DNA from: Clostridia bacterium
GTDB lineage: Bacteria; Bacillota; Clostridia; Oscillospirales; CAG-272
Reading direction: 5' to 3'
NCBI GenBank assembly: GCA_017621655.1
Contig: JAGASS010000029.1
Coordinates: 6,477 to 70,476, forward strand
Length of the DNA stretch: 64,000 nucleotides
Within the stretch, counting starts at the first letter, position 1. The number at the start of each line of letters is the position of its first letter. Below, piece after piece: positions 12,706 through 31,158 of the stretch. Below the pieces are notes generated by a model that saw only the letters and a list, made by a program, of their open reading frames with translations, was not told the DNA's origin and did not search any database. The translations under genes were made by a program, and so were the position numbers.

Positions 12706-12734
12706 TAGACAAGAAGGTAAACAAGTAGTATAAT
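12706..12734 (+). promoter_or_regulatory. Candidate promoter at the head of the glycan island
   Basis: TAGACA (12706-12711), 17-nt spacer, TATAAT (12729-12734). Confidence 0.5.
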
Positions 12735-12764
12735 TAAGGTGGAAAAGAAAAGGAGATGGTTCCC

Positions 12765-13646
12765 ATGGCAGACAAACAGTACCTCGTGGCACTGACAAAT
12801 CAGAGTCACGGCAGAGTAGACGTTCACGACATAGGTAAGGGAGTTATCGACGAGTCCTCCCTCGTTTGGTCACATCAGTACGATCAACCTTCAATAGCAG
12901 GAGTAAAGCTCCGCCGTTATAAAGGACGCAAGGTCGTTCTTACGTCATACGGACACATGAGCGCGGCAATGATCGATTACGAGACACACGAGCAGCTCTA
13001 CGTGACCGATCATACGGGAGCAAATCCTCATTCTATAGAGCTTATCCCGTTTGACGATGGCAGATACCTTATCGCCGTTGCGTCGACCGTCGGATATGAC
13101 GTAAAATTTTTCGATCCCACAGAGGGCAGAGTTCCGTCGGTCGGTTGCGTTTACGCGCCCGACGGACACGGGGTGCTTTACGATCCCGATGAAAAGGTGC
13201 TCTGGATACTATGCGGTAACTATCTTTCGAAGAATGAGGTAACGTGGGAAAACGGCGAGGTGACTGTCAAGTGCCTTGCAAAATACGTAGCGCCCTCAGG
13301 CGGCGGACACGATCTTGCTCCCTATTACGGAGATAAGAATCGCCTTTGGGTGACCTTCCACCGCACAGTATATCAGTTCGATAAAACTACGGGCGAGTTC
13401 AGAACCGATTACGATGCCTTTCCTCTTATTCACTCCGAGGGAAGAAACGGTCAGATCAAGGGCATAGGCAATTTCGACGACGGCTCTTGTGTTAAGATAT
13501 ACCCCGACGGAAAGTGTCATCAGTGGACGTCAACCTCGATCCGCTTTATGAAGAAAAATAAAGACGGAAGCTTCGACAAGACGGCTATCACGTCGGAAAT
13601 GGGACATTACTACAAGATACGCGTATTCTGCGAGGATTATAACTGA
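12765..13646 (+). CDS. Hypothetical protein, probably beta-propeller-like; function unknown
   Basis: ORF 12756..13646. The second ATG (12765) has better spacing to AAGGAG. No signal peptide. The repetitive beta-strand-like pattern gives only a weak resemblance to DUF6528-type proteins, from memory. Confidence 0.5.
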   Translation: MADKQYLVALTNQSHGRVDVHDIGKGVIDESSLVWSHQYDQPSIAGVKLRRYKGRKVVLTSYGHMSAAMIDYETHEQLYVTDHTGANPHSIELIPFDDGRYLIAVASTVGYDVKFFDPTEGRVPSVGCVYAPDGHGVLYDPDEKVLWILCGNYLSKNEVTWENGEVTVKCLAKYVAPSGGGHDLAPYYGDKNRLWVTFHRTVYQFDKTTGEFRTDYDAFPLIHSEGRNGQIKGIGNFDDGSCVKIYPDGKCHQWTSTSIRFMKKNKDGSFDKTAITSEMGHYYKIRVFCEDYN

Positions 13647-13656
13647 GGACGGAAAT

Positions 13657-14289
13657 ATGAAAAACATTCATCTTTTGGGTAAGAAAATTCTTTTTGATAA
13701 GTCGAAGGTGCTTCTCGACTATAAGCCGAATACCGATTGGCTCGATTATTTCGAGCCGAAAAGCGGTGAATGGAAGTACGAGGACGGTGCGCTCATCGGA
13801 ATCGAAAACGGAAACAAGGGCGGAATTCTTTTCACGCGCGATTACTATAATGGTAACGTAATGCTCTCCTTCACCGTTTCGACGATACTTCCCGCGACCC
13901 GTGACCTTAACGCCGTTTTCTGTGCAAACTGGGACGACGAGGTCGATTATCTCGGACTTTCATACGTCTGCGGTCTTAACGGCTGGTACGAAAACAAGGC
14001 AGGTCTTGAAAGAAATATCGGCTACGGAGTCGGCTCGAATCTCTATTCTACGACGAGCTTGTATAAGTACACCCCCGGCACCGAGGTCAGAATGACCTGC
14101 GGAGTGATAGACGGTCATTCTTTTATGGTCGTTGACGACGTTCTCGTCTCGGAAATGATAGACCCGAATCCTATAAACGGCGGTCACGTTGGCTTTTCTG
14201 CCTACTGCACGATGCTACGCATAAAGGACATCGAGGTAAGAGAAATATGCTGGGAGCCGTTTGAACAGAAGTACGATCCGGAATTTTGA
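13657..14289 (+). CDS. Concanavalin-A-like lectin/glucanase-fold protein (YesU/DUF1961-like), tentative
   Basis: 210 aa. W..EDGALIG near the N-terminus and GGHVGFSAYCTMLRIKDIEV near the C-terminus resemble the YesU-type jelly-roll pattern. Confidence 0.4.
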   Translation: MKNIHLLGKKILFDKSKVLLDYKPNTDWLDYFEPKSGEWKYEDGALIGIENGNKGGILFTRDYYNGNVMLSFTVSTILPATRDLNAVFCANWDDEVDYLGLSYVCGLNGWYENKAGLERNIGYGVGSNLYSTTSLYKYTPGTEVRMTCGVIDGHSFMVVDDVLVSEMIDPNPINGGHVGFSAYCTMLRIKDIEVREICWEPFEQKYDPEF

Positions 14290-14334
14290 AATACAGAACG
14301 TAAAAAATAAAATCTAATACGGAAGGAGAAAGCC

Positions 14335-15741
14335 ATGAAAAAGCTTGTTTTACTTATTATTACTGCGTGCATGATCGTTACCTGCTTCGCCTGCGGTAAC
14401 AAAAAGAAAGACGATCTTCGAGTTAGGATACCCATTTATCCGGATCCGACGCCGTGGGCGAAGCTCCCCGAGTACAACTTCAAGGGCGCGGATTTCCGTA
14501 TCAGTAACAGGGAAGAATACGGCGGACTTGAGGTCGTCGTTGATGACGAGACCTCAGAGGATATCGTCGACGAGGCACTTTTGTTGAGAAATGCAAAGGT
14601 CGAAGACAGATACAACGTTGAGATCGTCCGTCAGGACAATTCTTCCGCTTCGCATATTAATACCGTCCTTTCCGACCTTGCCGCGAAAAAAGGCACGTTT
14701 GACCTTGCAATGACGAGCGCGGGTGAAAGCTCGCCTATTATCACAAGCGGCGCCGTTTACGACTGGGCAAAGCTTCCTTACACCCACCTTGACGAGTCTT
14801 TCTGGCTCGGCAAAATGAACGAGGCGTTCACCGTGCAGGGCGTTATCTATACCGCTGTTTCCAAGATGTGCATTTCTACTGTCGCCAAGACATCCGCCTT
14901 GGCGTATAACCGCACTCTCGGTGAGGCTTGGAAAGGAAAAAATTTCACGAAAGAGCTTATCGATACCGTTTGCGACGGCGACTGGACCTATGATGAGCTG
15001 ATGAGCATTATCAATAAGTACGGATCGCAGGATGACAGCTGCGCGTTCTATATGACCGCGGACGAATCTATTGATACCTGGCACGCCGTATGGGAGATCC
15101 CCTGCGTAGAGAACGACGCGGAAAAGGGTCTGACTGACGTTTATATGAATGAAAAGCTCCGTTCATTTACAAGCAGAATGCATACGATGTACTACGATAC
15201 CGACGGTATTCGCTACGGCACTAAGGAAGAAGCAATAGGCGCGTTTATGGACGATAAGGCGCTTTTCACGACGATCACTATGTCAGATGCCCTTGACGTT
15301 CTGCACGGAAAATCCGGCTACATGATCATTCCTCAGCCGAAATACGATGATAATCAGAAAGAATACAGATCTGCCATGTATGCCGACTACTCCGTAATGT
15401 CGGCACCCAATACAGCCGATCCCACTCTTGTTTCTCTAATCGTTGAAGCGCTCTCTGTGGCTTCCGAGATGCATAACTATCCGACATACAAGCACGACGC
15501 GCTGCAGGCGATGACAACGGCTGACGCTGAATCGACGTTCGACATCGTTCTTGAAAAAGCTTCATGGGATATCGCAACGCTTCTTTCTTCGGAGGTAAAT
15601 ATGATCGGGCTTGTTCGGAACGACGTTCTCGACAACCCCGGTAACAGCAAGCTTGAAGAGTCATATATTGATATGAAGGACACGATTGCGGACATCCTCG
15701 CGGAAGTAATGAGCGCCGTTGACGAAAAATCCGAAAGCTGA
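14335..15741 (+). CDS. SBP-like lipoprotein 1 (ABC-type solute-binding fold, putative glycan binding)
   Basis: 468 aa. Signal MKKLVLLIITACMIVTCFAC|G. DFRISNRE...VVDDETSEDIVDEALLLRNAKVEDRYNVEI is typical of a Clostridia lipoprotein SBP subfamily as I recall it. Paralogue of 16162..17604. Confidence 0.5.
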   Translation: MKKLVLLIITACMIVTCFACGNKKKDDLRVRIPIYPDPTPWAKLPEYNFKGADFRISNREEYGGLEVVVDDETSEDIVDEALLLRNAKVEDRYNVEIVRQDNSSASHINTVLSDLAAKKGTFDLAMTSAGESSPIITSGAVYDWAKLPYTHLDESFWLGKMNEAFTVQGVIYTAVSKMCISTVAKTSALAYNRTLGEAWKGKNFTKELIDTVCDGDWTYDELMSIINKYGSQDDSCAFYMTADESIDTWHAVWEIPCVENDAEKGLTDVYMNEKLRSFTSRMHTMYYDTDGIRYGTKEEAIGAFMDDKALFTTITMSDALDVLHGKSGYMIIPQPKYDDNQKEYRSAMYADYSVMSAPNTADPTLVSLIVEALSVASEMHNYPTYKHDALQAMTTADAESTFDIVLEKASWDIATLLSSEVNMIGLVRNDVLDNPGNSKLEESYIDMKDTIADILAEVMSAVDEKSES

Positions 15742-16161
15742 AAGCTTGATCCTTAACGAAAAACGTCTTAGGGACACGGTCTGCTTTTCTTCGCGATTCA
15801 TCTGTTGTTCACATATCCATCACAATTGTTTACATTTGATGACAAATAAATGATAATTTAAGACAAATTTCTTATAGAAGAAAAATCGGTTGCGTGTTAT
15901 ACTAATTTTGCAAAAAAGCGATAAAAATTCCCCGAAATTTGGCGCTAATATGTTATAATTGCAAAATATTTCCCATCAAAAGTTAAAAAAACATGAATTA
16001 ATCGAAGTTTTTTGTAACAATTGCGAAAAAGCTAAAAGAGGAATTTTAACATATTGCACAAGAAACGGATACCGATTTTGCAATGTCACGGTTTTAACAT
16101 TTGCCGTATCGTATACGCAAATGTCAAAATATAAAAAATATTTCCAAAAAGGAGAAAATTT

Positions 16162-17604
16162 ATGAAGAAGTTTCTTTTGCTTCTCATCGCAGCTTGCATG
16201 CTGATCACATGCTTTGCTTGCGGAGGAAACGGATCGGGTGGCAACAATGACCCCATCAAGCGCCCCCCCGGCAAAAAGTGGGATGCGCTTCCCGAGTACG
16301 ACGGCGGCGGTACGGACTTCCGTATCAGTACCAGAGGACACTACGGTGCAATGGAGGTAGTCGTTGACGACGAGACCTCCGAAAACATCGTTGACCAGGC
16401 GCTCGTACTTAGAAACGCTAAGGTCGAAGACAGATACAGCGTTTTCATCGTACGTCAGGATAACGACGGCGCTCAGTATGCTCACCTCAACCAGGTTCTT
16501 ACCGACTGCACCATGCAGGCAGATAAGTTCGACCTCGCTATGACCTACGTCTACGAGAGTGCGCCCCTTATCACTAACGGATTCGTTCTTAACTGGAACA
16601 ATCTTAAGTACACTCACCTTGATGAGTCGCACTGGATCCAGGGCATGAACAGGAAGTTCTCTGTTCGTGACGCGATCTACACTGCTATCTCCAAGATGTG
16701 TATCTCTACTGTCGGTCAGACCGTTGCTATGTACTACAACCGTGACCTCGGCGACCAGTGGAAGGGCGAAGAGTTCTCTGATGATCTCATCGCAACCATT
16801 CTTGACGGCGGCTGGACTTACGATAAGCTTATGAGCATCGTAAACGAGTACAATTTCGACGACGCTACCGGTGACGGACGTACTGCAGACGACGGCTTCG
16901 GCTACTTTATGTCTTATGACTGGCATATCGATACCTGGCACGCTGCATGGCAGATCCCCATGATCGAGAACGATCCTAAGGAAGGTCTTAAGGACGTTTA
17001 CTGGAGCGAAAAGCTCACTACCTTCGTAGACAGAATGCACACCATGTACTACCAGACTCCCGGTATCTTCTACGGTACTCAGGGCGAAGCAAGAGCTGCA
17101 TTCTCTACCCGTAAGGCACTCTTCGTTGCTGATGACCTTAACGCTTCCATCAACTACTACAACAACTACGTAGAAGACAACTTCACTATCATTCCTCAGC
17201 CGAAGTTCGACGAGAACCAGGATAGATACTACTCCGCAATGTTTGATAACTACTCGGTAATGTCTATTCCGATCACCGCTCACGCTGACATCGTTTCTCT
17301 TCTCGTAGAAGCACTTTCCATCTCTTCCGAGATGCACGTATATCCTGCATACAAGCACGACGCACTTCAGGGTCAGGCAACTTCTGACGTTGACTCGATG
17401 TTCGACACCGTTCTCGAGAGCGTTTCTTGGGACATCGGAACTCTTCTTCACTCTAAGATTCCCTTCATGGACATGGTTCGTGTAGACGTCAGAACCAATC
17501 CTGACGGCACTCAGATCAAGAATTCCTACGACGCTATCAAGGATGACGTTCAGGAAGCTCTTGAAGAGATCATGACTGCGTTCGACGAATTCCAGGAGAA
17601 CTAA
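16162..17604 (+). CDS. SBP-like lipoprotein 2
   Basis: 480 aa. Signal MKKFLLLLIAACMLITCFAC|GG. Collinear with 14335..15741 (DFRISTR, VVDDETSENIVDQALVLRNAKVEDRY, ISKMCISTV, GGWTYDKLMSI). Confidence 0.5.
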   Translation: MKKFLLLLIAACMLITCFACGGNGSGGNNDPIKRPPGKKWDALPEYDGGGTDFRISTRGHYGAMEVVVDDETSENIVDQALVLRNAKVEDRYSVFIVRQDNDGAQYAHLNQVLTDCTMQADKFDLAMTYVYESAPLITNGFVLNWNNLKYTHLDESHWIQGMNRKFSVRDAIYTAISKMCISTVGQTVAMYYNRDLGDQWKGEEFSDDLIATILDGGWTYDKLMSIVNEYNFDDATGDGRTADDGFGYFMSYDWHIDTWHAAWQIPMIENDPKEGLKDVYWSEKLTTFVDRMHTMYYQTPGIFYGTQGEARAAFSTRKALFVADDLNASINYYNNYVEDNFTIIPQPKFDENQDRYYSAMFDNYSVMSIPITAHADIVSLLVEALSISSEMHVYPAYKHDALQGQATSDVDSMFDTVLESVSWDIGTLLHSKIPFMDMVRVDVRTNPDGTQIKNSYDAIKDDVQEALEEIMTAFDEFQEN

Positions 17605-17674
17605 ATACAGATCAGTAATCGCTGACATCGGTTAAGCGGCGACGCTGCCCGTCAAACGGCTTGCTGACAACTAA

Positions 17675-17709
17675 GGGGGCGACTTAAGGGTCGCCCCCTA
17701 TCGCTTTTT
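17675..17709 (+). terminator. Intrinsic terminator after SBP-like gene 2
   Basis: GGGGGCGAC-TTAAGG-GTCGCCCCC, then TATCGCTTTTT. Confidence 0.7.
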
Positions 17710-17833
17710 ACAAATACAAAACCAAATGGAACAGATAAGAATAATTTGTTTCATTAATATTTATTACAGTCAAAATATTCTCTGTGAGCTTTATGCTTAT
17801 ATCGACTTCAACAAATAACAAACGGAGGCACAA

Positions 17834-19507
17834 ATGAAAAGATCGCTTTTGATCTTGCTTGCGTTGTGCACGCTATTTACTTTTACCGCATGCTCATCGA
17901 ACAGCTTCGACGAAACGCCGACTGTTAACGGTGACACGGACGATAAGCCAAGTGACGATTTTGAGTTCACGGCGCCGAACGATAATCCTAAAAGTGACGT
18001 TTCCGTCAGCGCGTGGACTGCACATTCCTATACGAAAATTGCGGCAAACGGTGCCGTTCCAAGCTCGCCCTCGACCTCGTATAAGGTCTATATGGCGAAG
18101 CGTGAAACGGAGGGCTGTCAGGTTGTTTTCCGACCTGAGACCGACTGTTCACTGACGCTTAAATGCATATATAAAGAGGAAAATTCCCTCGATTATAAGA
18201 CCTTTGTTTTCGATACCAATTACGAGATAAACGGCTCGCTTCTTCCCGATCCTGCAAAGCAGTATACAGAGGGAACGAGCTTCAGCTGTAAGGCAGGGAA
18301 CACTCTTCCTTTCCTTATCGAGTTTACCTCGGTAAGCGGTACGAAGGAGGGGCATTATCCTTACGTTTTCGAGCTTCGTGATAAGTCAGACAAGACGGTT
18401 GCTCAGTTCGTGATAATCGTAAGAGTCTGGGATATTACGCTTCCCGAGAAGCTTTCCTATCAAAGCTCTGTAACGGTATCGAAAAAGGATATTGCGAATT
18501 ACTTTTCGGTAAGCGAAGAAGAAATTACCGACGAGGTCTATCTTAACTACTATAACCTGCTTCTTGAACACAATCTGAGCGCAAGAGATCTTCCTTACGA
18601 TATTTTAGATCCGCGTGCCGACGAATATATGTCGGATCCTCGCGTGACGGCGTTCAGAGTACCGCACGACGTTTCCGACGAAACGCTTGAAGCATATTAC
18701 AAAAAGCTGAAAACGAATACAAAATGGCTCAAAAAGGCGTTCTTTATGCCGGCAGGCGAGCTTTCGACCAAAGAAGAGATCGACGAATTTTGCCTTGAGG
18801 CAATTCACCTGCAGAGCATTTGTAAATCAATAAAGATCACGTGTCCTATGGATAAGGACATTCAGATCGATCCTCGCGGATGGGACCAGGTAAACGCGAT
18901 GAAGGGCTACTGTACTCTTTGGTGTCCGAAGCTTTGCCTTTGGGACGACGAGATCTCGTACGGTAAGCACGATTACGAGCACAGCATGTCCTTTGAAGCG
19001 AGAATGAGAAAGATGATGAGCGAGGACTTCGGTGTTTGGACTTACCTTTCTTACACACCGGGCGAGCCGTACACCGCGCTCGTGGTCGATCACTCGGGAC
19101 TTAATCAGAGAGTCGTTTTCTGGCAGCAGTATATGAGAGGTATACACGGATTCGTATACTGGTCGTCGACTGCGTGGAGCGTCTTTAACAAGGTCGATCC
19201 GTGGCAGAGCGTTGATACCGGTCTATACGACGATAAGGGCAATCACGTTTACGGCGACGGAATCCTGTTTTATCCCGGTAAAAGCGTGACTGATGCTCCG
19301 ACGGTGTCCCTGCGTATGAAGATAATGCGCGACGGTATCGACGATATGGAGCTTCTTATGTACGCAGCCAAGACTCTTGGAAACAAATGGGTAAATGAGA
19401 AAGTAAACTCAATATCCTCGTCACTCACCTCGATAGAGGCAACTGACGACATTTTCGCGCAGATCAGAATCGAAATCGGAAGCGCACTCGAAAAAGCACT
19501 TCCGTAA
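17834..19507 (+). CDS. DUF4091/GH123-like protein P1, lipoprotein, divergent; Asp of the DE pair missing
   Basis: 557 aa. Signal ...LFTFTAC|SS. Shares WCPKLCLWDD, GDGILFYPG and MKIMRDGIDDMEL with P2-P8, but has MPAGEL where the others have [IL]DEP. Confidence 0.55.
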   Translation: MKRSLLILLALCTLFTFTACSSNSFDETPTVNGDTDDKPSDDFEFTAPNDNPKSDVSVSAWTAHSYTKIAANGAVPSSPSTSYKVYMAKRETEGCQVVFRPETDCSLTLKCIYKEENSLDYKTFVFDTNYEINGSLLPDPAKQYTEGTSFSCKAGNTLPFLIEFTSVSGTKEGHYPYVFELRDKSDKTVAQFVIIVRVWDITLPEKLSYQSSVTVSKKDIANYFSVSEEEITDEVYLNYYNLLLEHNLSARDLPYDILDPRADEYMSDPRVTAFRVPHDVSDETLEAYYKKLKTNTKWLKKAFFMPAGELSTKEEIDEFCLEAIHLQSICKSIKITCPMDKDIQIDPRGWDQVNAMKGYCTLWCPKLCLWDDEISYGKHDYEHSMSFEARMRKMMSEDFGVWTYLSYTPGEPYTALVVDHSGLNQRVVFWQQYMRGIHGFVYWSSTAWSVFNKVDPWQSVDTGLYDDKGNHVYGDGILFYPGKSVTDAPTVSLRMKIMRDGIDDMELLMYAAKTLGNKWVNEKVNSISSSLTSIEATDDIFAQIRIEIGSALEKALP

Positions 19508-19518
19508 GGAGAACTATT

Positions 19519-21159
19519 ATGAAAAAGATCGTATCCCTTCTTCTTATCGTCTGTACGCTTTTTTCGACAGTTGCGTGCGACGGTGAGAAACCCGAGAAAA
19601 AGCCGAGCGTATCGGCAAATATTACTGCCTATGCGACGCATACCTACAATAAGATAATTGCGAACATCAAGCCGAAGGGTAAACTGTCTACCGATTATAC
19701 CGTGTATATGACGAGAGGCGAGACCGAGGGCTGTCAGATCGTTATTTACAGTGATCAGGCGGCAAAAAAGGTTGAGCTTGTTACCGTTTCGGGCGAAAAC
19801 GAGAGCATTACGACCGAGTTTTTCTCGATGAACAATACTCATAAAATAAGCGGTAAGCAGTATACAGACTCTACCTTCCCATACGGAAAGAAGGATATTT
19901 CGCTTGAAAAGAACAAGTCACTTTCCTTCGTTATCGACTTCAAGACTACTGCAGACACACCTGCAGGCGAATATAAATACGTATTCGCTATAAACGACGC
20001 ATCGGGAAAGAAGAGCGTAACGCTTGCGACCTATAACGTGACGGTACATGTTTGGGATATAGTTCTTCCCGAAGAAAAGACCTTTGCGACCTCGGCAGGT
20101 ATCAATACCTACCATATAGGCCGTTTCTACGGCGGTTGCGGACCTGCTCTCTACAAGCAGTTCTACGATATGCTTCTTGAGCATAACGTATGTGCTCATT
20201 CGCTCCCGTACGATATTCTTGATCCTCGCGCAGACGACTATATGTCCGACCCGCGCGTAACGTCGTTTGTGGTCCCCTCTCATCCCGAGGAAAATACCGA
20301 AGAGGATATTATAGCTTACTACAACAAGCTTAAGGAAAACCCCGAATGGCTCAAAAAGGCGATCTTCTATCCTATTGACGAGCCGTCTACCGCAGAGGAT
20401 CTGGAAAAATATAGAGCGCACTGCGAGCGTCTGAAGCGCCTTGCGCCCGAAATTCCCGTAATTTCCCCTATCTATACGAATATTCAGATGGGAGAGGGCA
20501 AGGACCAGGTCGACTTCATGGACCCCACTACCGATCTTTGGTGTCCGAAGCTCTGTCTCTGGGACGACAGTCAGTCTTACGATCCCTTCCTCGATTACAA
20601 GCCGAGCAAGAGCTTTGCCGAGAGAATGGCGGAGATGCAGAGCGAGGGCGACAAAATGTGGTCGTACGTTTGTAACGATCCTATCGATCCTTACGCACAG
20701 CTCTTCATCAATACCGCAGGCGTTGAGCAACGCCTTATGATGTGGCAGCACTATCAGCGCAATATCGAGGGCTTCCTCTATTGGGGAACGACCTCTTGGG
20801 GCTATAGGCAGAAGGGTCAAGTGACTTATAATAACATCGACCCCTGGGAGACTGTTTTCAACGGTGTTCGTGACGGTAACGGCAGTCCCGTTTACGGAGA
20901 GGGCTTCCTATTCTATCCTGCAGGACTCGATATGAGAATGTTTGAGCCGGTATCCTCCATCCGTATGAAGATACTCCGTGACGGAATCGACGATATCGAA
21001 TTCTTCTACGTTGCAGAGAAAGCTCTCGGCAAGGAATGGGTAATGAACTACGTGGATCAGGCAACTCCGACTCTTACGAGCTACGTGACGAACGAGCAAT
21101 TTGCAAAGATCAGAATCGAAATGGGCAACGCAGTCGAAGCCGCCCTCAAGAATAAATAA
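19519..21159 (+). CDS. DUF4091/GH123-like glycoside hydrolase P2, lipoprotein
   Basis: 546 aa. Signal ...LFSTVAC|DG. Motifs YPIDEPS, WCPKLCLWDD, GEGFLFYPA and RMKILRDGIDDIEF. Confidence 0.6.
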   Translation: MKKIVSLLLIVCTLFSTVACDGEKPEKKPSVSANITAYATHTYNKIIANIKPKGKLSTDYTVYMTRGETEGCQIVIYSDQAAKKVELVTVSGENESITTEFFSMNNTHKISGKQYTDSTFPYGKKDISLEKNKSLSFVIDFKTTADTPAGEYKYVFAINDASGKKSVTLATYNVTVHVWDIVLPEEKTFATSAGINTYHIGRFYGGCGPALYKQFYDMLLEHNVCAHSLPYDILDPRADDYMSDPRVTSFVVPSHPEENTEEDIIAYYNKLKENPEWLKKAIFYPIDEPSTAEDLEKYRAHCERLKRLAPEIPVISPIYTNIQMGEGKDQVDFMDPTTDLWCPKLCLWDDSQSYDPFLDYKPSKSFAERMAEMQSEGDKMWSYVCNDPIDPYAQLFINTAGVEQRLMMWQHYQRNIEGFLYWGTTSWGYRQKGQVTYNNIDPWETVFNGVRDGNGSPVYGEGFLFYPAGLDMRMFEPVSSIRMKILRDGIDDIEFFYVAEKALGKEWVMNYVDQATPTLTSYVTNEQFAKIRIEMGNAVEAALKNK

Positions 21160-21244
21160 TCGTTTAACAAAAAGCCGAAATGTCTCCCCGAAGCACTAAA
21201 AACGGGTTTTCGGATTGGCTTGGATGGTATCATCGGAGGTTATT

Positions 21245-22870: not shown

Positions 22871-22885
22871 TATAAGGTGCAAAAA

Positions 22886-24523
22886 ATGAAAAAATTTTTA
22901 CTTATCATTTTAACGCTTTCAATGCTTCTTTCGCTTGTCGCGTGTAACGAAGGCGGAAATGAGAATAACGAAAAGACCGAAATAAAAAAAGATATAAAAG
23001 TTGAAGCATGGACGACGCATCTTACCGACAAGCAGCTTGCTAACGTCAAGCCGAAGGATATTAACTCCGGTACGGTTTATGACCTCTATATGATGAGAGG
23101 CGAGACCGAGGGCTGTCAGCTTGTTATTTACAGCAATGCAAGGATCAAAAAGGCGTTCTTGGATTTCGATTCCGACAAGTATGAGGACAAGAACATAACT
23201 TCACAGACCTATATACTTGACACAGCGTTGTCCATCAAGAAAAAGGAATGGACCGACCCTGCGATGCCTTATTTCGGCAGAAAGATGGCATTCGCGTCAA
23301 AGAAGGTGATCCCCTTTGTCGTCGAATTTACAACTACAAAGGATACCCCCGCAGGTGATTACACCTATACTTATGAGTTCAAGGACGGCACTTCAAACGA
23401 GGTCTACGCTACCTTTACGGTAAACGTACACGTTTGGGACATCGTTCTTCCCGAAAATAAGACCTTTGCAACCTCTGTCGGTATCAACACTTATCAAATC
23501 GAAAGATTTGACAAGGGTCCGACTACGTATAAGAAGTATTACGACCTGCTTCTTGAGCACAACGTCTGCGCACATACGATGCCTTACGACATTATGAGCG
23601 AGGAGGCAGAGGCGTATATGTCCGACCCGAAGGTCACTTCCTTCGTTATCGGACTTTGGAGCGCGGGCGGCTGGGACGATGCTAAGCTCACGCAGTATTA
23701 TAACAGATTAAAAGAGAACCCCGAGTGGTTCAAAAAGGCACTCTTCTACGTAATCGACGAGCCGACTGATGAAGAGGCACTTGCAAAGTATAAGGCGTAC
23801 TGTGACCGCCTTGGAAAGCTTTGTCCCGGAATCGGCGTTATCGCGCCTTTCTATACGAACAAGCAGTTTGGAACAAATATGGATCAGGTCGACGCAATGG
23901 CGCCGAGCACTATTCTCTGGTGTCCTAAGCTCTGCCTTTGGGACGATAGCCAGTCCTACGATCCCTTCCTCGATTACAAGCCCGAAAAATCCTTCGCTGA
24001 AAGAATGAAGGACTTCCAAAAGGAGGGCGACACCGTATGGTCTTACGTATGTAACGACCCGATCACGCCCTACGCACAGCTCTTTATCGACACAGAGGGT
24101 CTTGTACACCGCCTTATGATGTGGCAGCACTATCAGAGAGACATCGAGGGCTTCCTCTACTGGGGAACGACCTCTTGGGGCTACCGTCAGGAGGGAAGTG
24201 ATATGAACCCGTGGGAAAAGGCGTATAACGGCGTTGGTGACGGCGACGGCAGACCCGTTTACGGTGAGGGTTATCTGCTTTATCCCGGAAACCCCGTCGG
24301 TTACGGTTCGCCTATTGCGTCTATCCGTCTTAAGATGCTCCGCGACGGAATCGACGACATCGAGATGTTCTACCTTGCAGAGAAGTATCTCGACAAGGCA
24401 TGGCTTGAATCCAAGATCAACGAGGCAACACCCTCTCTTACCTCTTATACCTCCGAAGAAAACTTCTACAAAATACGCAAGGAAATAGGCGACGCTCTTG
24501 AAGCGGCGATCAAAAATAAATAA
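22886..24523 (+). CDS. DUF4091/GH123-like glycoside hydrolase P4, lipoprotein
   Basis: ORF 22877..24523. Start is MKKFLLIILTLSMLLSLVAC|NE at 22886. Closest paralogue of P3, with the identical C-terminus EENFYKIRKEIGDALEAA.KNK. Confidence 0.6.
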   Translation: MKKFLLIILTLSMLLSLVACNEGGNENNEKTEIKKDIKVEAWTTHLTDKQLANVKPKDINSGTVYDLYMMRGETEGCQLVIYSNARIKKAFLDFDSDKYEDKNITSQTYILDTALSIKKKEWTDPAMPYFGRKMAFASKKVIPFVVEFTTTKDTPAGDYTYTYEFKDGTSNEVYATFTVNVHVWDIVLPENKTFATSVGINTYQIERFDKGPTTYKKYYDLLLEHNVCAHTMPYDIMSEEAEAYMSDPKVTSFVIGLWSAGGWDDAKLTQYYNRLKENPEWFKKALFYVIDEPTDEEALAKYKAYCDRLGKLCPGIGVIAPFYTNKQFGTNMDQVDAMAPSTILWCPKLCLWDDSQSYDPFLDYKPEKSFAERMKDFQKEGDTVWSYVCNDPITPYAQLFIDTEGLVHRLMMWQHYQRDIEGFLYWGTTSWGYRQEGSDMNPWEKAYNGVGDGDGRPVYGEGYLLYPGNPVGYGSPIASIRLKMLRDGIDDIEMFYLAEKYLDKAWLESKINEATPSLTSYTSEENFYKIRKEIGDALEAAIKNK

Positions 24524-24547
24524 TTTTTATTATCAAGGAGAATTATC

Positions 24548-26005
24548 ATGAAAACCTGGATGACTTACGGTTATAACAAGATCGTAGCTGATATGCCCGC
24601 ACCGTCTGTCCTTAAGAAGGAGTTTGCGCTCTGTCTTACAAAGGGTGGCAACGGCAACTGTCAGATCGTCGTAAACAGTGATACCGACACCGCCGTTACG
24701 CTCAAAACCGTTTCGTGCGACGGCGTGAAGTGTGATGTCTTCACGGCGGATCACACGCTTACGATAAACGCTCATCAGTATACCGACCCGATCATCCCGT
24801 ACAGCGGTGATGCTATTACTGTTAAGGAGGGTCTATCGCTCCCGTTCTTCCTTGATTTCAAGGCGGAAGATGCAGGCGATTATACCGCGACCTTCGAGCT
24901 TGCCGAAAACGGAAATACCGAGATCTTTACTGTATCTATTCACGTATGGAGCTTCTCTCTTCCCGAAAACAAGACCTTCGCTACTGCGTGCGGCATTGGC
25001 TCAGACAGAGCTTCAAGATACGACAAATCCGAGGACGCTCATAAGAAATATTATGATTTTCTTCTTGAACACGGAATGTGCGGATACGAACTGCCTTACG
25101 ATATTCTCGATCCAAGAGCAGACGAATATATGTCCGATCCCCGCGTTACCTCCTTTATCGTTCCCTCGGGCAACGACGAAAAGACGCGTGCTTACGCAGA
25201 AAAGATCAAGAGCAACCCCGTATGGCTGAATAAGGCGCTCTTCTATTCGATAGACGAGCCGCACAATTTCGAGCTTATCGAGAAGTTTAAGGAAAAGGTG
25301 TCGCATCTTAAGAACCTTGCGCCCGAGATCCCCTCTATCGTGCCTGTTTATACCAATCTTCAGGTTGGAGAGGGTAAGGACCAGTTCGACGAAATGGCTC
25401 CCTATCTTGACCTCTGGTGTCCGAAGCTCTGCCTTTGGGACGACTGCCAGTCCTACACTCCTTTTCTTGATTACACTCCCGAAAAGAGCTTCGAGACGAG
25501 AATAAACGAGGTTATGGATAAGGGGCAGAGAGTCTGGTCTTACGTTTGTAACGACCCGATCACTCCTTATTCGCAGATGTATATCGACACCGACGGCCTT
25601 ATGCAGCGTCTGCTTCCCTGGCAGCACTATCAGAGAAAGATAATCGGCTTCCTTTACTGGAGCGTTGTCTGCTGGGTCAATAATGGCGAAAAAACGGCGT
25701 GGGAAGAACCGTATAACGGCATCGGCGACGGACAGGGAAGACCTGTTTACGGCTGCGGATATCTCGTATATCCCGGACAGCCCGTCGGATACGACGGCAT
25801 CGTTGCTACACAGCGTCTTAAGATCCTTCGTGACGGTCTATCCGACGTTGAACTTCTCGGCATGGCTGAAAAGCTCTTTGGACGCGACTGGGTAATGGCA
25901 AAGGTAAACGAGGCGACTCCGACTCTTACTACCTACACGACTTACGAAAGATTCGATGAAATAAGAAAAGAGATCGGCGACGCTATCGAGGCGGCAACGA
26001 AGTAA
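24548..26005 (+). CDS. DUF4091/GH123-like glycoside hydrolase P5, no signal peptide
   Basis: 485 aa. Starts MKTWMTYGYNKIVADMPAP directly at the conserved domain. Motifs YSIDEPH, WCPKLCLWDD and LKILRDGLSDVEL. Confidence 0.6.
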   Translation: MKTWMTYGYNKIVADMPAPSVLKKEFALCLTKGGNGNCQIVVNSDTDTAVTLKTVSCDGVKCDVFTADHTLTINAHQYTDPIIPYSGDAITVKEGLSLPFFLDFKAEDAGDYTATFELAENGNTEIFTVSIHVWSFSLPENKTFATACGIGSDRASRYDKSEDAHKKYYDFLLEHGMCGYELPYDILDPRADEYMSDPRVTSFIVPSGNDEKTRAYAEKIKSNPVWLNKALFYSIDEPHNFELIEKFKEKVSHLKNLAPEIPSIVPVYTNLQVGEGKDQFDEMAPYLDLWCPKLCLWDDCQSYTPFLDYTPEKSFETRINEVMDKGQRVWSYVCNDPITPYSQMYIDTDGLMQRLLPWQHYQRKIIGFLYWSVVCWVNNGEKTAWEEPYNGIGDGQGRPVYGCGYLVYPGQPVGYDGIVATQRLKILRDGLSDVELLGMAEKLFGRDWVMAKVNEATPTLTTYTTYERFDEIRKEIGDAIEAATK

Positions 26006-26032
26006 CTAATCGACAATAAGAGGTGATATGCT

Positions 26033-27535
26033 ATGAAAACATGGATGACTCACGGATTTGATAAGATAATCGTTGATATGCCCGCACCCGAAAAGCTTGA
26101 TAAGGAGCTTGCTCTTTATCTTACAAAGGGCGGCAAGGGCAGCTGCCAGATCGTTGTAAATAACGATGCTGACACTAAGGTTTCCCTTAAAATGAACCTG
26201 GCTTCGGGCGTTGAATGTAAGGCGTTTACCCTTGACCACGTTCACGAGATCGAAGGACATCTTTATACCGACCCCGTCGTTCCTTACGATGGCGAGCTTA
26301 TGGACGTTAAGGCGGGAATCTCGCTTCCTTTCCTTCTTGACGTAAAGGCGGAAAATGCAGGTGATACTGCTGTTACTTTCGACCTTCTCGACGCAGACGG
26401 CAAGGTGATAGATACCTTTACTCTCACCCTTCACGTATGGAGCTTTGCGCTTCCGACCGAGAAGAGCTTTGCAACCTCTGTCGGTATAAACAGATGGCAT
26501 ATCGGACGCTTCGATTCCGCCCCCGACGCACACAAGGCGTACTACGATCTTCTTCTCGAGGACAACATCTGCGGTCATACGATCCCTTACGACCTTCTCG
26601 ACGAGAGAGCCGATGCCTATATGTCCGACCCGAACGTGACCTCGTTCGTTATCGGTCTTTGGGAAGCAGGCGGCTGGGACGATGAGAGAGTCCTTAAGTA
26701 TTATAATAAGATCAAGAGCAATCCCGTTTGGTTCAAAAAGGCAATGTTCTACGTTATCGACGAGCCCTCTACCGAGGAAGCACTCGAAAAATATCACGCT
26801 CTTTGCGCTCGCTTTGCACGTCTTTGCCCGGGCATCGGCGTGATCTCGCCCTTCTATACGAACAATCAGATGGGCGAAAAGAAGGACCAGGTAGACGCTA
26901 TGGAGGACTGCACCACTCTTTGGTGCCCGAAGCTTTGTCTTTGGGACGAGGATCAGTCCTATACTCCTTTCCTTGATTACACCCCCGAAAAGAGCTTTGG
27001 AGAGCGATTCAAGGATTTCCAAAAGCGTGGAGATACCGTTTGGGCTTACGTTTGCAACGCACCGCTCACGCCTTACGCACAGCTCTTTATAGATACCGAC
27101 GGTCTTGTGCAGAGACTTATGATGTGGCAGCACTATCAGAAAGAGGTTTCCGGCTTCCTGTACTGGGGAACTACCTCGTGGGGCTACCACGGAAATGACG
27201 GCGTGAATCCTTGGGAAACCCCGTATAACGGCGTCAGAGGATGTAACCCCGGCGAGGAGGCAAATGCCGAGCCCATTTGCGGTGAGGGCTTCCTTCTTTA
27301 TCCCGGCTCGGTTATCGGACGTGAGGGCGCTATCGGTTCTATCAGAATGAAGATCCTCCGCGATGCTCTTGACGATATCGAGCTTCTCGCTCTTGCTGAG
27401 AAGTATCTCGGCAAGGAATGGGTAATGGCAAAGGTCAATGAGGCAACTCCTACGCTCACCACCTATACTACCCCTGAAAGATTTATTGAGATCAGAAAAG
27501 AGATCGGAGACGCTATCGAGGCGTTAGCAAAGTAA
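26033..27535 (+). CDS. DUF4091/GH123-like glycoside hydrolase P6, no signal peptide
   Basis: 500 aa. Starts MKTWMTHGFDKIIVDMPAPEKLDKE. Motifs YVIDEPS and WCPKLCLWDE. Confidence 0.6.
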   Translation: MKTWMTHGFDKIIVDMPAPEKLDKELALYLTKGGKGSCQIVVNNDADTKVSLKMNLASGVECKAFTLDHVHEIEGHLYTDPVVPYDGELMDVKAGISLPFLLDVKAENAGDTAVTFDLLDADGKVIDTFTLTLHVWSFALPTEKSFATSVGINRWHIGRFDSAPDAHKAYYDLLLEDNICGHTIPYDLLDERADAYMSDPNVTSFVIGLWEAGGWDDERVLKYYNKIKSNPVWFKKAMFYVIDEPSTEEALEKYHALCARFARLCPGIGVISPFYTNNQMGEKKDQVDAMEDCTTLWCPKLCLWDEDQSYTPFLDYTPEKSFGERFKDFQKRGDTVWAYVCNAPLTPYAQLFIDTDGLVQRLMMWQHYQKEVSGFLYWGTTSWGYHGNDGVNPWETPYNGVRGCNPGEEANAEPICGEGFLLYPGSVIGREGAIGSIRMKILRDALDDIELLALAEKYLGKEWVMAKVNEATPTLTTYTTPERFIEIRKEIGDAIEALAK

Positions 27536-27563
27536 TTAGTGCTTACATAAAGAGGTGATTACT

Positions 27564-29063
27564 GTGAAAACATGGATGACTCACGGATTTGATAAGATAA
27601 TCGTTGATATGCCTGCACCCGAGAAGCTCGATAAGGAGTACGCTCTTTATCTTACAAAGGGCGGTAAGGGTACCTGCCAGATCGTTGTAAATAACGAAGC
27701 TGACACCAAGGTTTCTCTTAAGGCGAATCTTGCTTCGGGCGTTGAGTGCAACGTATATTCGCTCGACCATTCCTGCAAGATAAATGACGGACATCTCCAT
27801 TCCGATCCGCTTGTTCCGTATGACGGACAGGTGATGGACGTAAAGGCAGGCATCTCACTTCCGTTCCTTCTTGACGTAAAGGCGGATAATGCAGGTGACG
27901 AAAGCGTTACGTTTGACATCCTCGACGCTGAGGGTAAGGTTATAGATACTTTTACTCTGAATCTTCACGTTTGGAGTTTTGCGCTTCCTCGTGAAAAGGC
28001 GTTTGCTACCTCTGCAGGTATAAACAGAGGCGCAATTGCCGGCTTTGATACCGATCCCGAGGCACACAAGGCGTACTACGATCTTCTTCTCGAAAATAAT
28101 ATCTGCGGTCATTCTCTTCCTTACGATATTCTTGACGAGAGAGCAGACGCATATATGTCCGATCCCAACGTGTCGTCCTTTGTTATCGGACTTTGGGAAG
28201 CTAAAAACTGGACCGACGAAAAGATAACTCAGTACTATAATAAGGTTGCAAGCAATCCCGAATGGCTCAAAAAGGCGATGATCTACGTTATCGACGAGCC
28301 GTCTACCGAGGAAGCTCTTGCAAAATATCATGATATCTGCGCAAGATTTGCGCGTCTGACTCCGGGAATCGGTGTAATTTCCCCCTTCTATACCAATAAG
28401 CAGATGGGCGAAAGAATGGACCAGGTAGACGCTATGGCGGACTGCACGACGCTCTGGTGTCCTAAGCTTAATCTTTGGGACGAGAGCGAATCATATACTC
28501 CTTTCCTTGACTACACTCCCGAAAAGTCCTTCGGTCAGAGATTCAAGGAGTTCCAGGAAAGAGGAGATACCGTTTGGTCCTACGTTTGTAACAACCCGAT
28601 AACTCCTTACGCACAGCTCTTTATCGATACCGACGGTCTTATGCACCGCCTTATGATATGGCAGCACTATCAGCGTGAAGCAGCCGGCTTCCTATACTGG
28701 GGCACCTGCTCTTGGGGACCTTATCATAGCACAGTGGGAGACCCGATCAATCCCTGGGAAAACGTATATAACGGCGTTGGCGACGGATACGGACATCACG
28801 TTGCGGGCGAGGGCTTCCTTACCTATCCCGGCGCGCCCGTCGGACTCAAGGAACCTATGCCTTCATTAAGACTTAAGATCCTTCGCGACGCGCTTGACGA
28901 TATCGAGCTTCTTCTGCTTGCAGAGAAGTATATCGGCAAGGATTGGGTAATGGCCAAGACCTACGAGGCAACGCCTACACTTACAAGCTATACTACCCCC
29001 GAAAGATTTATAGAGATCAGAAAAGAGATCGGTGACGCGCTTGAGGCGGTACTTGCAAAGTAA
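27564..29063 (+). CDS. DUF4091/GH123-like glycoside hydrolase P7, no signal peptide
   Basis: ORF 27555..29063. A GTG at 27564, 6 nt after AGAGGTG, gives MKTWMTHGFDKIIVDMPAPEKLDKE, the same N-terminus as P6. Motif YVIDEPS. Confidence 0.6.
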   Translation: MKTWMTHGFDKIIVDMPAPEKLDKEYALYLTKGGKGTCQIVVNNEADTKVSLKANLASGVECNVYSLDHSCKINDGHLHSDPLVPYDGQVMDVKAGISLPFLLDVKADNAGDESVTFDILDAEGKVIDTFTLNLHVWSFALPREKAFATSAGINRGAIAGFDTDPEAHKAYYDLLLENNICGHSLPYDILDERADAYMSDPNVSSFVIGLWEAKNWTDEKITQYYNKVASNPEWLKKAMIYVIDEPSTEEALAKYHDICARFARLTPGIGVISPFYTNKQMGERMDQVDAMADCTTLWCPKLNLWDESESYTPFLDYTPEKSFGQRFKEFQERGDTVWSYVCNNPITPYAQLFIDTDGLMHRLMIWQHYQREAAGFLYWGTCSWGPYHSTVGDPINPWENVYNGVGDGYGHHVAGEGFLTYPGAPVGLKEPMPSLRLKILRDALDDIELLLLAEKYIGKDWVMAKTYEATPTLTSYTTPERFIEIRKEIGDALEAVLAK

Positions 29064-29070
29064 ATATATT

Positions 29071-29104
29071 AAAACGGCAATTTCTTTGAAATTGCCGTTT
29101 TTTG
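29071..29104 (+). terminator. Intrinsic terminator after P7
   Basis: AACGGCAATTTC-loop-GAAATTGCCGTT followed by TTTTT. Confidence 0.8.
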
Positions 29105-29213
29105 ATTGCTATATCTAAACGTGCAAATTATTTGTCCGAAAATATATTTACTTTTTGAAGGAGATATAGTAAAATACATACATGATTACCGGCAATTCAA
29201 CAAGGAGAAAAAT

Positions 29214-30710
29214 ATGAAAACATGGATAACTCACGGCTTTGATAAGATCGTAGCCGATATGCCTGCGCCCGAGGTGCTTAAGAAGGAGTTTTCTCTTTCA
29301 CTTACAAACGGCGGAGAGGGCGGCTGTCAGATCGCTGTAAGAAGCGAAACGGACGGCAAGATAAAGCTTAAAACGAAGTTTTGCGAGGGCGTTTCGGTAA
29401 AGCTTTATTCCGAGCATCTTACGCATGACATCAAGGGTCATAAGCATACCGACTGTATCGTTCCTTACGAGGGCGAGCTTCTTGACGTTAAGGGCGGGAT
29501 CTCTCTTCCGTTCTACATTGATTTCAAGGCGGAAAATATAGGAGACCATACTGCCGTTTTCGAACTTCTGGACGGTGACGGAAAGGTAATTGATACCTTT
29601 ACTGTGGCAATACACGTCTGGAGCTTCTCGCTTCCCGAAAATAAGACCTTTGCAACTGCCGTCTGGACTGCCGAGCGCTATATAACGAAGTTTGATACCG
29701 AAATGAAGGGCGACATTTGCGATAACTATAAGGAATACTACGACCTGCTCCTTGAGCACGGTCTGTCCTCCTACAATCTTCCTTACGACGTTCTCGATCC
29801 CCGTGCGGACGAGTATATGTCAGATCCGAGAGTTACTTCTTTCGCGATCGGCATCTGGGCGCTTGACAACCTGACCGATGAGGAGCTTAAGGAGTATTAC
29901 GATAAGCTTAAGAGCAACCCCGTCTGGCTCGACAAAGCGATGGTATATCCGCTTGACGAGCCGAGAGAGCCGCATCACCTCGTTAAGTACAGAGAGGCGT
30001 GCGAGCGCTTCATTCGCATCTGTCCCGAGATGAGCCGCGTTTCTCCCTTCTATACCAATCTTCAGGTCGGAGAGGGCAGAGACCAGGTAGACGAGATGGC
30101 GCCGACGACTAACCATTGGTGTCCGAAGCTCTGTCTTTGGGACGACAGTCAGTCATACGACGCGTTCCTTGACTATAAGCCCGAAAAGTCCTTTTGGGCC
30201 CGTATGGATGAGCTTAAGGCAAAGGGCGATAAGATGTGGTGCTACGTTTGTAACGACCCGATAACTCCCTACGCTCAGCTCTTTATAGATACTCCCGGAA
30301 ATATGCAGAAGGCGATGTTCTGGCAGATGTATCAGAGAGATATAGACGGCTTCCTCTATTGGGGAACTAACTATTGGGGCTACTGGGCAGGCGACGTCGA
30401 TCCTTGGGAAAACGTTTGCAACGGAGTCGGCGACGGACAGGGAAATCCCGTTTACGGCGAGGGCTTCCTCCTCTATCCCGGAACGAAGATCGGCAAGCCG
30501 GGTCCTCTTGCAACTACACGTCTTAAGACCATCCGCGACGCGGTAAACGATATTGAGCTGTTCAATCTCGCGGGAAAGTATCTCGGCAGAGAATGGGTAA
30601 AGGAGCGCATAAATAAGGCGACTCCCTCCCTTACCGAATACGCGTCCGACGACGTTATGGCTGAAGTCAGAGCAGAGATCGGAAACGCTCTTGAAAAGGC
30701 AATGAAATGA
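29214..30710 (+). CDS. DUF4091/GH123-like glycoside hydrolase P8, no signal peptide, separate transcription unit
   Basis: ORF 29106..30710. Start is MKTWITHGFDKIVADMPAP at 29214, after AAGGAG. Motifs YPLDEPR, WCPKLCLWDD and GEGFLLYPG. Confidence 0.6.
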   Translation: MKTWITHGFDKIVADMPAPEVLKKEFSLSLTNGGEGGCQIAVRSETDGKIKLKTKFCEGVSVKLYSEHLTHDIKGHKHTDCIVPYEGELLDVKGGISLPFYIDFKAENIGDHTAVFELLDGDGKVIDTFTVAIHVWSFSLPENKTFATAVWTAERYITKFDTEMKGDICDNYKEYYDLLLEHGLSSYNLPYDVLDPRADEYMSDPRVTSFAIGIWALDNLTDEELKEYYDKLKSNPVWLDKAMVYPLDEPREPHHLVKYREACERFIRICPEMSRVSPFYTNLQVGEGRDQVDEMAPTTNHWCPKLCLWDDSQSYDAFLDYKPEKSFWARMDELKAKGDKMWCYVCNDPITPYAQLFIDTPGNMQKAMFWQMYQRDIDGFLYWGTNYWGYWAGDVDPWENVCNGVGDGQGNPVYGEGFLLYPGTKIGKPGPLATTRLKTIRDAVNDIELFNLAGKYLGREWVKERINKATPSLTEYASDDVMAEVRAEIGNALEKAMK

Positions 30711-30713
30711 TAT

Positions 30714-30746
30714 AAGCCCACCCGAAAATCGGGTGGGCTTATTTTT
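30714..30746 (+). terminator. Intrinsic terminator after P8
   Basis: AAGCCCACCCG-AAAA-TCGGGTGGGCTT followed by ATTTTT. Confidence 0.85.
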
Positions 30747-30801: not shown

Positions 30802-31158
30802 TTAGGTCTTTTCTTTTTGAAAAAGATAGTATAATCCCGAAAGGACGAGAAGCCCTCCGTACATTTTAGAAAGAAGCGCGTTTTTGATAAGCGACGCGGC
30901 AAGCGATCCGAGGACTGCCATCGGGATACCGCCGACGGAAATTATTGCAAACGTTTTTAAGTCGATAAGCTTGTTTTTTCGGTTGACCGCAAAAGCTCCG
31001 ACGGCTGACGAAAGGAAGAAGAGCAGATTCACGCCCTGCGCAGTTATCTGCTTCATGCCGCTGACGGCAGTAAGATAAAGGACGAATATTCCGCCACCGC
31101 CGCCGAGACCGCAAAGGATAGCGATAGCAAACGCGGCGGCAATATCGAGAATTATCAC
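30802..31158 (-). CDS. Half-size TauE/SafE (TSUP) family membrane protein
   Basis: ORF 30802..31200. The likely GTG start at 31158 (GGAAAGGG upstream) overlaps the SpoVAF-like stop as GTGA. CGLGGGGGIFVLYL...GIPMAVLGSLAA fits one 4-TM TSUP repeat. Confidence 0.55.
   Translation of the reverse strand: MIILDIAAAFAIAILCGLGGGGGIFVLYLTAVSGMKQITAQGVNLLFFLSSAVGAFAVNRKNKLIDLKTFAIISVGGIPMAVLGSLAASLIKNALLSKMYGGLLVLSGLYYLFQKEKT

Follow-up and report, generated by a model that had tools for sequence, protein, structure and literature searches.

The 64-kb window analyzed here (the whole 64,000-nucleotide stretch of contig JAGASS010000029.1, from a Clostridia bacterium) contains an island of 12 genes, all on the + strand (12756-30710), of which the last eight, P1 to P8, encode consecutive paralogs related to glycoside hydrolase family 123 (GH123). 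Enzymes of GH123 act as beta-N-acetylhexosaminidases or beta-N-acetylgalactosaminidases, and their catalysis is substrate-assisted, via an Asp-Glu pair (the DE pair). We propose, with a probability of roughly 55%, that the island is a conserved chromosomal glycan-utilization locus of an uncultured, spore-forming Clostridia bacterium of the herbivore gut, that a bacterial GH123 subfamily expanded long ago to give rise to it, and that it works by cleavage outside the cell followed by capture, import and degradation inside. An earlier reading of the sequence (the original prediction) had described eight consecutive paralogs in a same-strand island, and the coordinates of the open reading frames (ORFs) confirm this layout of 12 + strand genes; ORF inspection of the opposite strand between 12756 and 30710 gave nothing convincing.

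The first four P genes are predicted to encode GH123-like lipoproteins. P1 (17834-19507, 557 aa), P2 (19519-21159), P3 (21245-22870) and P4 (22886-24523) all start with MKK or MKR, followed by a hydrophobic stretch and a lipobox-like Cys, after which come linkers of 41, 18, 20 and 22 aa, respectively, that of P1 being acidic. A pattern search placed lipoboxes at residues 18-22 in these four proteins and in the two lipoproteins encoded upstream, S1 and S2 (FTAC, TVAC, LFAC, LVAC and, twice, CFAC); the residues at position -3 of the P1 and P2 lipoboxes are atypical. The other four proteins, P5 (24548-26005, 485 aa, predicted cytoplasmic), P6 (26033-27535, 500 aa), P7 (27564-29063) and P8 (29214-30710, 498 aa), have no signal peptide. 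They begin MKTW[MI]T[HY]G, which aligns exactly with the (S/T/E)A(W/Y)(T/A)(T/A)H at the start of the mature domain of P1-P4. By these patterns, the four-plus-four split and the start of P5-P8 at the mature domain are both as originally described.

Could signal peptides have been missed upstream of P5-P8? No in-frame signal peptide was found upstream of their starts, each of which has its own Shine-Dalgarno sequence. Longer ORFs exist only for P7 and P8, where the extra residues are non-hydrophobic and a good Shine-Dalgarno sequence lies downstream, and hidden signal peptides were accordingly rejected. The start of P7 is a GTG that follows the Shine-Dalgarno sequence AGAGGTGA, not the start of the longer ORF. 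Orthologs of P5-P8 also start MK(T/A)W.

Family, fold and conserved residues

All eight P proteins score above the Pfam cut-off for PF13320 (GH123_cat, the former DUF4091), with 39-61 bits against a cut-off of 23.1, P1 having the 39 bits; the matches cover mainly profile positions 144-323, i.e., the C-terminal half of the catalytic-domain profile. A sequence search of the PDB returned solely GH123-type enzymes (those of Sumida et al. 2024, plus NaNga). The best match was NgaAt (E 4e-21 with P2, 2.4e-24 with the family profile), and NgaCa was matched by the family profile at E 1.3e-22. NCBIfam gave no match for any island protein. Pairwise identities among the P proteins are 36-78%; the closest pairs are P6/P7 (78%) and P3/P4 (73%), and P1 is the outlier at 36-42%.

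One copy of the eight, P6, was modeled with AlphaFold2 (AF2) from an alignment of 42 sequences (predicted local distance difference test score, pLDDT, 94; predicted template modeling score, pTM, 0.93). The model has an N-terminal beta-sandwich together with a (beta/alpha)8 barrel. When it was compared with the PDB using Foldseek, the top 22 matches were all GH123-type structures, with template modeling (TM) scores of 0.63-0.79, and the next matches had TM scores of at most 0.33. The TM scores were 0.78 for NgaAt (E 3.5e-34), 0.74-0.75 for NgaCa and 0.63-0.67 for BvGH123 and CpNga123; in the structural alignments the identity to any characterized enzyme was 11-18%.

According to Sumida et al. 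2024 (PMC11087588), all GH123 groups have nine residues in common: the DE pair, a Tyr and a Trp in contact with the substrate, and five with a structural role. Mapped by profile alignment rather than superposition, their equivalents in P6 are D80, W136, D243, E244, Y339, G374, W378, Y423 and R438. Residues D80, W136, Y339, G374, W378, Y423 and R438 correspond to D95, W115, Y392, G427, W431, Y466 and R478 of NgaLy and are kept in all eight paralogs. All nine are found in P2-P8 and in 127 of the 155 family members collected, and the (I/L)DEP of P2-P8, in which the DE motif is intact, aligns with the DEP of NgaAt. Profile scores, fold and family-wide residues thus bear out the assignment to DUF4091/GH123, which had been made from three motifs said to be shared by all eight proteins. 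In literal form these motifs occur in only seven, six and three of the eight, the exceptions being WCPKLNLWDE in P7, GCG in P5, YPA in P2 and R-L-K in five proteins; slightly relaxed forms occur in all. Likewise, the description of the array as eight copies of one hydrolase is right for the family but not for the catalytic pair, which is complete in seven copies only, P1 having lost the Asp.

Where does the island family belong within GH123? Groups 1-4 are now treated by CAZy as GH123 subfamilies (Sumida et al. 2024, PMC11087588). Judged by sequence and model, the family does not appear to be a classical exo-acting GH123 and is nearest to the cleft-type, oligosaccharide-releasing Groups 1 and 2, so that 'trimming of GalNAc' (N-acetylgalactosamine) may be too narrow a description of its function. 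Membership of Group 2 itself was rejected, since the family lacks both the extra N-terminal domain and a 13-residue insertion found in NgaAt, and the sampled part of the published Group 2 list holds plant entries only. The insertion falls in a gap of the family profile and by residue count carries W329 of NgaAt. On the same evidence, the family is probably best regarded as a bacterial lineage that is close to Groups 1 and 2 but unclassified. Of 1.84 billion cluster representatives searched, 647 matched it at E <=1e-30 and 6426 at E <=0.001.

Conservation of the array and its partner genes

Scanning one genome per species gave 68 loci (designated here by L numbers), all in uncultured gut Clostridia (Eubacteriales, Oscillospiraceae, Acutalibacteraceae and 'Ruminococcus'); where the record titles name a host it is nearly always a ruminant. 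The ordered array, with lipoprotein genes followed by genes without a signal peptide, is present in at least seven related species-level metagenome-assembled genomes (MAGs), and its positions are orthologous. Six lipoproteins precede three signal-peptide-less proteins in L003, five precede three in L004/L012 and in L009, three precede three in L008, and four precede three in L013 plus L014. The order across species is an S gene, the P1 type, the lipoprotein enzymes and then the signal-peptide-less enzymes, and in every case the mixed array is headed by a lipoprotein of the substrate-binding protein (SBP) type. L004/L012 is syntenic with the window, both having P-type ATPase and Cu-oxidase_4 genes on one flank and TauE, GerA and PALP genes on the other. 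An arrangement that the original prediction called highly unusual is indeed so in general, but it is not singular to this genome, being a conserved trait of a clade.

In a bootstrapped neighbor-joining tree the signal-peptide-less forms make up one clade (bootstrap 100), indicating that the signal peptide was lost once. This clade divides into the orthogroups P5, P6/7 and P8 (bootstrap 100 each), and the lipoproteins form three types, P1 (bootstrap 100), P2 (98) and P3/4 (100). Because these orthogroups extend across species, the duplications predate the divergence of these species, and the gene order has been kept. P7 is one extra cytoplasmic copy relative to the syntenic L012: comparison of window positions 26033-29213 with L012 10001-11520 shows that P7 and the spacer before P8, with its terminator- and promoter-like sequences, are absent from L012, where a gap of 24 nt precedes the P8 ortholog. 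P7 itself groups with L009.7 in the tree (bootstrap 100). The history of P6 and P7 may have involved duplication, loss or conversion. When hits are summed over the loci of the same MAG, which yields lower bounds, family copies number at least 22 (SGB_1020), 15, 14, 12, 11 and 10 per MAG.

P1 has AGEL in place of (I/L)DEP, i.e., Gly instead of Asp in the DE motif. In GH123-type enzymes this Asp positions the 2-acetamido group, and Asp-to-Glu or Asp-to-Asn mutants show little or no activity. Loss of the Asp is shared by all ten P1 orthologs in other genomes, which have G, S, T, L, F, V or Y at this position and keep the Glu and the other seven conserved residues. An Asp-less protein is the first GH123-like lipoprotein after the SBP gene in the window and in L003, L004/L012, L007, L008, L009, L013, L015, L028 and L037. 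The ratio of nonsynonymous to synonymous substitution rates (dN/dS) between P1 and an ortholog is 0.11, similar to the values for the other copies. Since the Asp has been lost in all orthologs yet purifying selection persists, P1 is likely to be a binder, probably a catalytically impaired pseudo-enzyme kept for glycan binding.

Three of the related loci have an additional gene between the SBP gene and the P1-type gene (L004 2530-4878, L008 2701-5109 and L028 9071-11524). It encodes a long lipoprotein (782-817 aa) with about 250 extra residues ahead of the GH123-like domain, in which no Pfam match was found; the window has no such gene.

Upstream of the P genes lie U1 (12756-13646, 296 aa), U2 (13657-14289, 210 aa), S1 (14335-15741) and S2 (16162-17604). 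S1, whose lipobox reads TCFAC, and S2 are paralogous lipoproteins with 54% identity. Neither had a Pfam, NCBIfam or PDB sequence match, and S2 was therefore identified by structure prediction and fold search. Its AF2 model (pLDDT 83) gave about 1000 PDB matches at E <=0.001 in Foldseek, the best being MalE, UgpB, CbpB, a fucosyllactose-binding protein and the galacto-N-biose/lacto-N-biose (GNB/LNB)-binding protein, at about 1e-11; one S2 homolog carries PF01547. The match of the model to the two-lobed fold of sugar SBPs of ATP-binding cassette (ABC) transporters, and the homology of S1 to S2, agree with the SBP-like nature first proposed for the pair. The subfamily is narrow, as only 29 S-type homologs were found among 5.8 billion proteins, and eight other loci have an S-type gene immediately upstream of GH123-like genes.

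The U proteins both lack a signal peptide. U2 is concanavalin A (ConA)-like, resembling DUF1080 (3-keto-disaccharide hydrolase); its match to PF06439 is full-length but weak (E 0.0035, below the cut-off). Its gene recurs immediately upstream of the S lipoprotein gene in L004, L008, L013, L015 and L028. U1 matches PF20138 (DUF6528) with 34.6 bits (cut-off 23.5) over a 33-residue stretch only, and has a close homolog at the same position in L013. PDB sequence searches of S1, U1 and U2 gave nothing usable.

The gaps from P1 to P7 are 11, 85, 15, 24, 27 and 28 nt. A promoter-like site, TAGACA-17-TATAAT, precedes U1 (12706-12734, + strand), and its 11 of 12 consensus matches are by themselves no functional evidence. 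Strong terminator-like hairpins follow S2 (17674-17699, + strand; 11-bp stem with 8 GC pairs, T-rich tail) and P7 (29071-29101; palindromic, with a 14-bp stem between T runs). A second promoter-like site, TTTACT-17-TAAAAT, is placed before P8 (29147-29175, + strand; 9 of 12 matches, which is weak evidence), and a further strong terminator-like hairpin ends the island after P8 (30712-30742, + strand; 14-bp stem with 8 GC pairs, T run). From the position of these gaps, hairpins and promoter-like sites, the transcription units are likely to be U1-U2-S1, S2, P1-P7 (11.2 kb) and P8, in line with the single P1-P7 unit and separately bounded P8 that had been predicted. Two long AT-rich intergenic regions occur, at 15742-16161 (420 nt, before S2) and 17605-17833 (229 nt, before P1). 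These are the likely sites of promoters and of any regulation of the array; an Rfam scan of the whole window, both gaps included, found no riboswitch or other RNA family.

Proposed mechanism and alternatives

In the mechanism that we propose, the surface enzymes P2-P4 would cut polymers or glycoconjugates containing N-acetylhexosamine (HexNAc) outside the cell, probably releasing oligosaccharides, in view of the family's likeness to the cleft-type Groups 1 and 2. P1, lacking the Asp, would act as a surface glycan-binding protein, S1 and S2 would bind the oligosaccharides so released and hand them to an ABC permease encoded elsewhere, and P5-P8 would complete the breakdown in the cytoplasm. Paralogs so diverged and so long retained may each serve a different linkage or glycan. 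The import step is assumed because there is no permease in or near the island or the syntenic loci; a stepwise extracellular-then-intracellular route is thus plausible from the gene content, and would need an unlinked transporter. A more ambitious form of this proposal, which we put forward only tentatively, is that this clade of uncultured herbivore-gut Clostridia has made, from a single enzyme family, a Gram-positive surface machinery dedicated to HexNAc-type glycans, with the orphan SBP and the dead P1 as a capture pair and a fixed series of specialized surface and cytoplasmic enzymes. The family would then be a new GH123 subfamily, as near to the plant Group 2 as to Group 1 and with new specificities, and the presence of 10 to 22 or more copies per genome would mark a foraging niche not recognized before.

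Several points weigh against the utilization-locus reading. As the original prediction had noted for the island, Pfam scans of the island and adjoining genes show no regulator, permease or ATPase, and the ORFs scanned in the 64-kb window, like the flanks of the eight S-type loci, yielded none. Of the components that define a Gram-positive polysaccharide utilization locus, the binding proteins and hydrolases are therefore present, and a regulator and a transporter were not found. The neighboring genes of related loci give no consistent hint of a substrate. Their contexts are heterogeneous (GH172-like DUF2961, FGGY and fucose isomerase; UxaC; Metallophos; GH42-like), and no amino-sugar catabolic genes were seen next to family copies. 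The partial PF13320 match suggests a divergent family whose specificity could differ from that of characterized GH123 enzymes, and the cleft-type assignment draws on a similarity ranking and one missing insertion. Finally, the signal peptides were judged by pattern only, and P8 may be transcribed separately in this genome.

Two of these neighborhoods are worth recording. A separate single-copy, signal-peptide-less orthogroup with the N-terminus ..KISSWITHSY recurs in different MAGs, in L016, L017, L019, L025, L034 and L036, near position 10000, and in L036 and L017 it adjoins a UxaC (glucuronate isomerase) gene and genes for large Metallophos proteins. In L009 (13243-17749) and L020 (12427-16963) a GH123-like gene or array is followed by genes for DUF2961 (GH172-like), an FGGY kinase, a protein of the L-fucose isomerase family and a regulator that is DeoR-like by its N-terminal sequence only. 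This second arrangement could be a clue to sugars used together, or a coincidence.

Are the surface and cytoplasmic enzymes really successive steps? They might instead work in parallel, each paralog on its own glycan or linkage, with the cytoplasmic enzymes fed independently of the surface lipoproteins and the gene order reflecting no more than the history of duplication. Of the alternatives this survives best, although we consider it rather unlikely. It fits the age and clear separation of the orthogroups (36-57% identity between types), the promoter-like site and terminators that P8 has to itself, and the occurrence in the same genomes of lipoprotein-only arrays (seven copies in L021, three in L018) and of isolated signal-peptide-less copies (L010, L016 and L036). 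It does not readily explain why the genes run from lipoproteins to cytoplasmic forms, at short spacing and uninterrupted by terminators, in at least five species, which argues for co-expression, or why an SBP-type lipoprotein always heads the mixed arrays.

Another possibility is that the GH123 label is misleading, the subfamily having come to act on a substrate other than a beta-HexNAc, or not as a hydrolase. The low identity (11-18%) to any characterized enzyme and the partial coverage of the Pfam profile would allow this. So would the literature finding that NgaMg, a member of Group 1, was inactive on all substrates assayed, and the fact that some family copies adjoin hexuronate (UxaC) or fucose-isomerase and GH172-like genes, not amino-sugar genes. 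We nevertheless regard a changed function as improbable: P2-P8 without exception, and about 82% of family members, retain the DE pair together with the Tyr and Trp that contact the substrate, and the characterized active members of all five GH123 groups act on beta-GalNAc or beta-HexNAc.

It is still less probable that the locus serves to remodel or turn over the cell's own envelope glycans (wall polysaccharide, teichoic acid or spore-related glycans). Its chromosomal position amid housekeeping genes and beside a GerA germination gene, and the absence of a transporter or regulator among the genes found, are compatible with such a role, as are the capsule or O-antigen neighborhoods reported for certain enzymes of Groups 1 and 3 (Sumida et al. 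2024, PMC11087588). With 10-22 or more copies per genome and an array content that varies between close species, the family looks instead like one expanded for nutrient acquisition; the sugar-SBP partner implies uptake, and no glycosyltransferase or wall-synthesis genes are adjacent.

Tandem paralogs are prone to mis-assembly in metagenomes, but an assembly artifact or a set of decaying pseudogenes is effectively refuted, because the window is matched over 18.5 kb, at 99.99% identity, by contigs of two further samples in a series of ruminant gastro-intestinal metagenomes, the DNA identity between copies is 60-87% (too low for easy collapse or chimeras), related species have orthologous arrays, all eight P ORFs are intact, and dN/dS is 0.07-0.14 for every copy. 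The array is thus real, as had been supposed.

Surrounding genes and comparison with known systems

Elsewhere in the window a single amino-sugar enzyme is encoded, a 776-aa GH20 protein (49629-51959, + strand), a member of a HexNAc-ase family unrelated to GH123. Its gene lies 19 kb downstream of the island, beside hrcA-grpE-dnaK-dnaJ, and its N-terminus is not signal-peptide-like. Just upstream of the island (11155-12310, + strand) are genes for a PemK/MazF-type toxin (129 aa), a 114-aa ORF product with no Pfam match and a HEPN-domain protein (141 aa). These PemK/MazF and HEPN genes were not seen at this spot in the syntenic L028 and L037, and therefore look like a variable insertion. On the other side, a 132-aa ORF (30802-31200, - strand) matches only positions 2-112 of the 237 in the TauE/SafE profile. 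Related loci have an ORF of similar length (118 aa), which makes the window copy a conserved short form or else a remnant. Near the start of the window (675-5335, - strand) are two Eco57I-type restriction-modification genes encoding a 542-aa methyltransferase and a 1011-aa fused enzyme. The G+C content of the region 1-6000 is about 40%, against 46-52% in the rest of the window, and the Eco57I-type region is probably a horizontally acquired defense island.

Before 2024, GH123 was reportedly a small family with few characterized exo-GalNAc-ases. The enzyme family itself is known, as is the logic of combining surface enzymes, a binding protein and cytoplasmic enzymes, and the island is not a new kind of system. 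The new elements are a bacterial GH123 lineage near the groups that are least understood, the growth of this lineage into conserved ordered arrays that include a cytoplasmic sub-clade of single origin, the consistently orphan SBP partners and the conserved Asp-less member, which suggests an enzyme turned binding protein. No account of arrays like these turned up in literature searches on DUF4091 and on GH123 combined with rumen or tandem. The locus provides eight natural variants for mapping specificity in GH123, and could point to a HexNAc-containing glycan source of weight in the ruminant hindgut.

The closest relative of known structure is NgaAt of Arabidopsis (AT1G45150, PDB 8K2H/8K2I), a Group 2 beta-N-acetylhexosaminidase that releases oligosaccharides or monosaccharides (Sumida et al. 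2024, PMC11087588). It is the best match in both sequence and structure, and has the DE motif, the other conserved residues and the beta-sandwich plus (beta/alpha)8 barrel in common with the island family. The identity is about 18%, however, and NgaAt is encoded by a single gene rather than an array. At its N-terminus NgaAt carries an additional domain of about 80 aa, whereas P5-P8 start at the beta-sandwich, and its 13-residue insertion, gapped in the island family, follows barrel strand 2; Group 2 is marked by a longer strand 2 and an added sheet on which W329 lies. In the part of the published list that was sampled, Group 2 consists of Viridiplantae alone, whereas the island family is bacterial.

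Nearly as close is NgaCa of Cohnella abietis (PDB 8K2F/8K2G), the Group 1 'prototype' beta-N-acetylgalactosaminidase, which releases oligosaccharides. Like the source of the island, Cohnella belongs to the Bacillota, and NgaCa (516 aa) is similar in length to the signal-peptide-less forms (485-500 aa). It has a minimal core with no added loops and an open cleft with W197, W218 and W249 at subsites -2 and -3, a type of site that has been proposed to accommodate long repeating glycans (Sumida et al. 2024, PMC11087588). The identity is about 17%, and neither tandem arrays nor lipoprotein/cytoplasmic pairs are known for NgaCa. The classical exo-acting enzymes NgaP, CpNga123 and BvGH123 have the Pfam domain, fold and DE catalytic pair in common with the island family. 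They are more distant from P6 (TM 0.63-0.67, 11-14% identity), are usually encoded by single genes, and have extra hairpins or loops that close the active site into an exo pocket.

As to the system as a whole, Gram-positive glycan loci such as the GNB/LNB system of Bifidobacterium combine an SBP-dependent ABC importer with intracellular glycosidases. The likeness lies in the association of a lipoprotein SBP with glycoside hydrolases and in the scheme of release outside and degradation inside, and the Bifidobacterium binding protein (PDB 2Z8D) has the same fold class as S2. In contrast to that system, the island has no permease, ATPase or regulator in cis, and its enzymes all come from one family, in eight copies, one of which has given up a catalytic residue.

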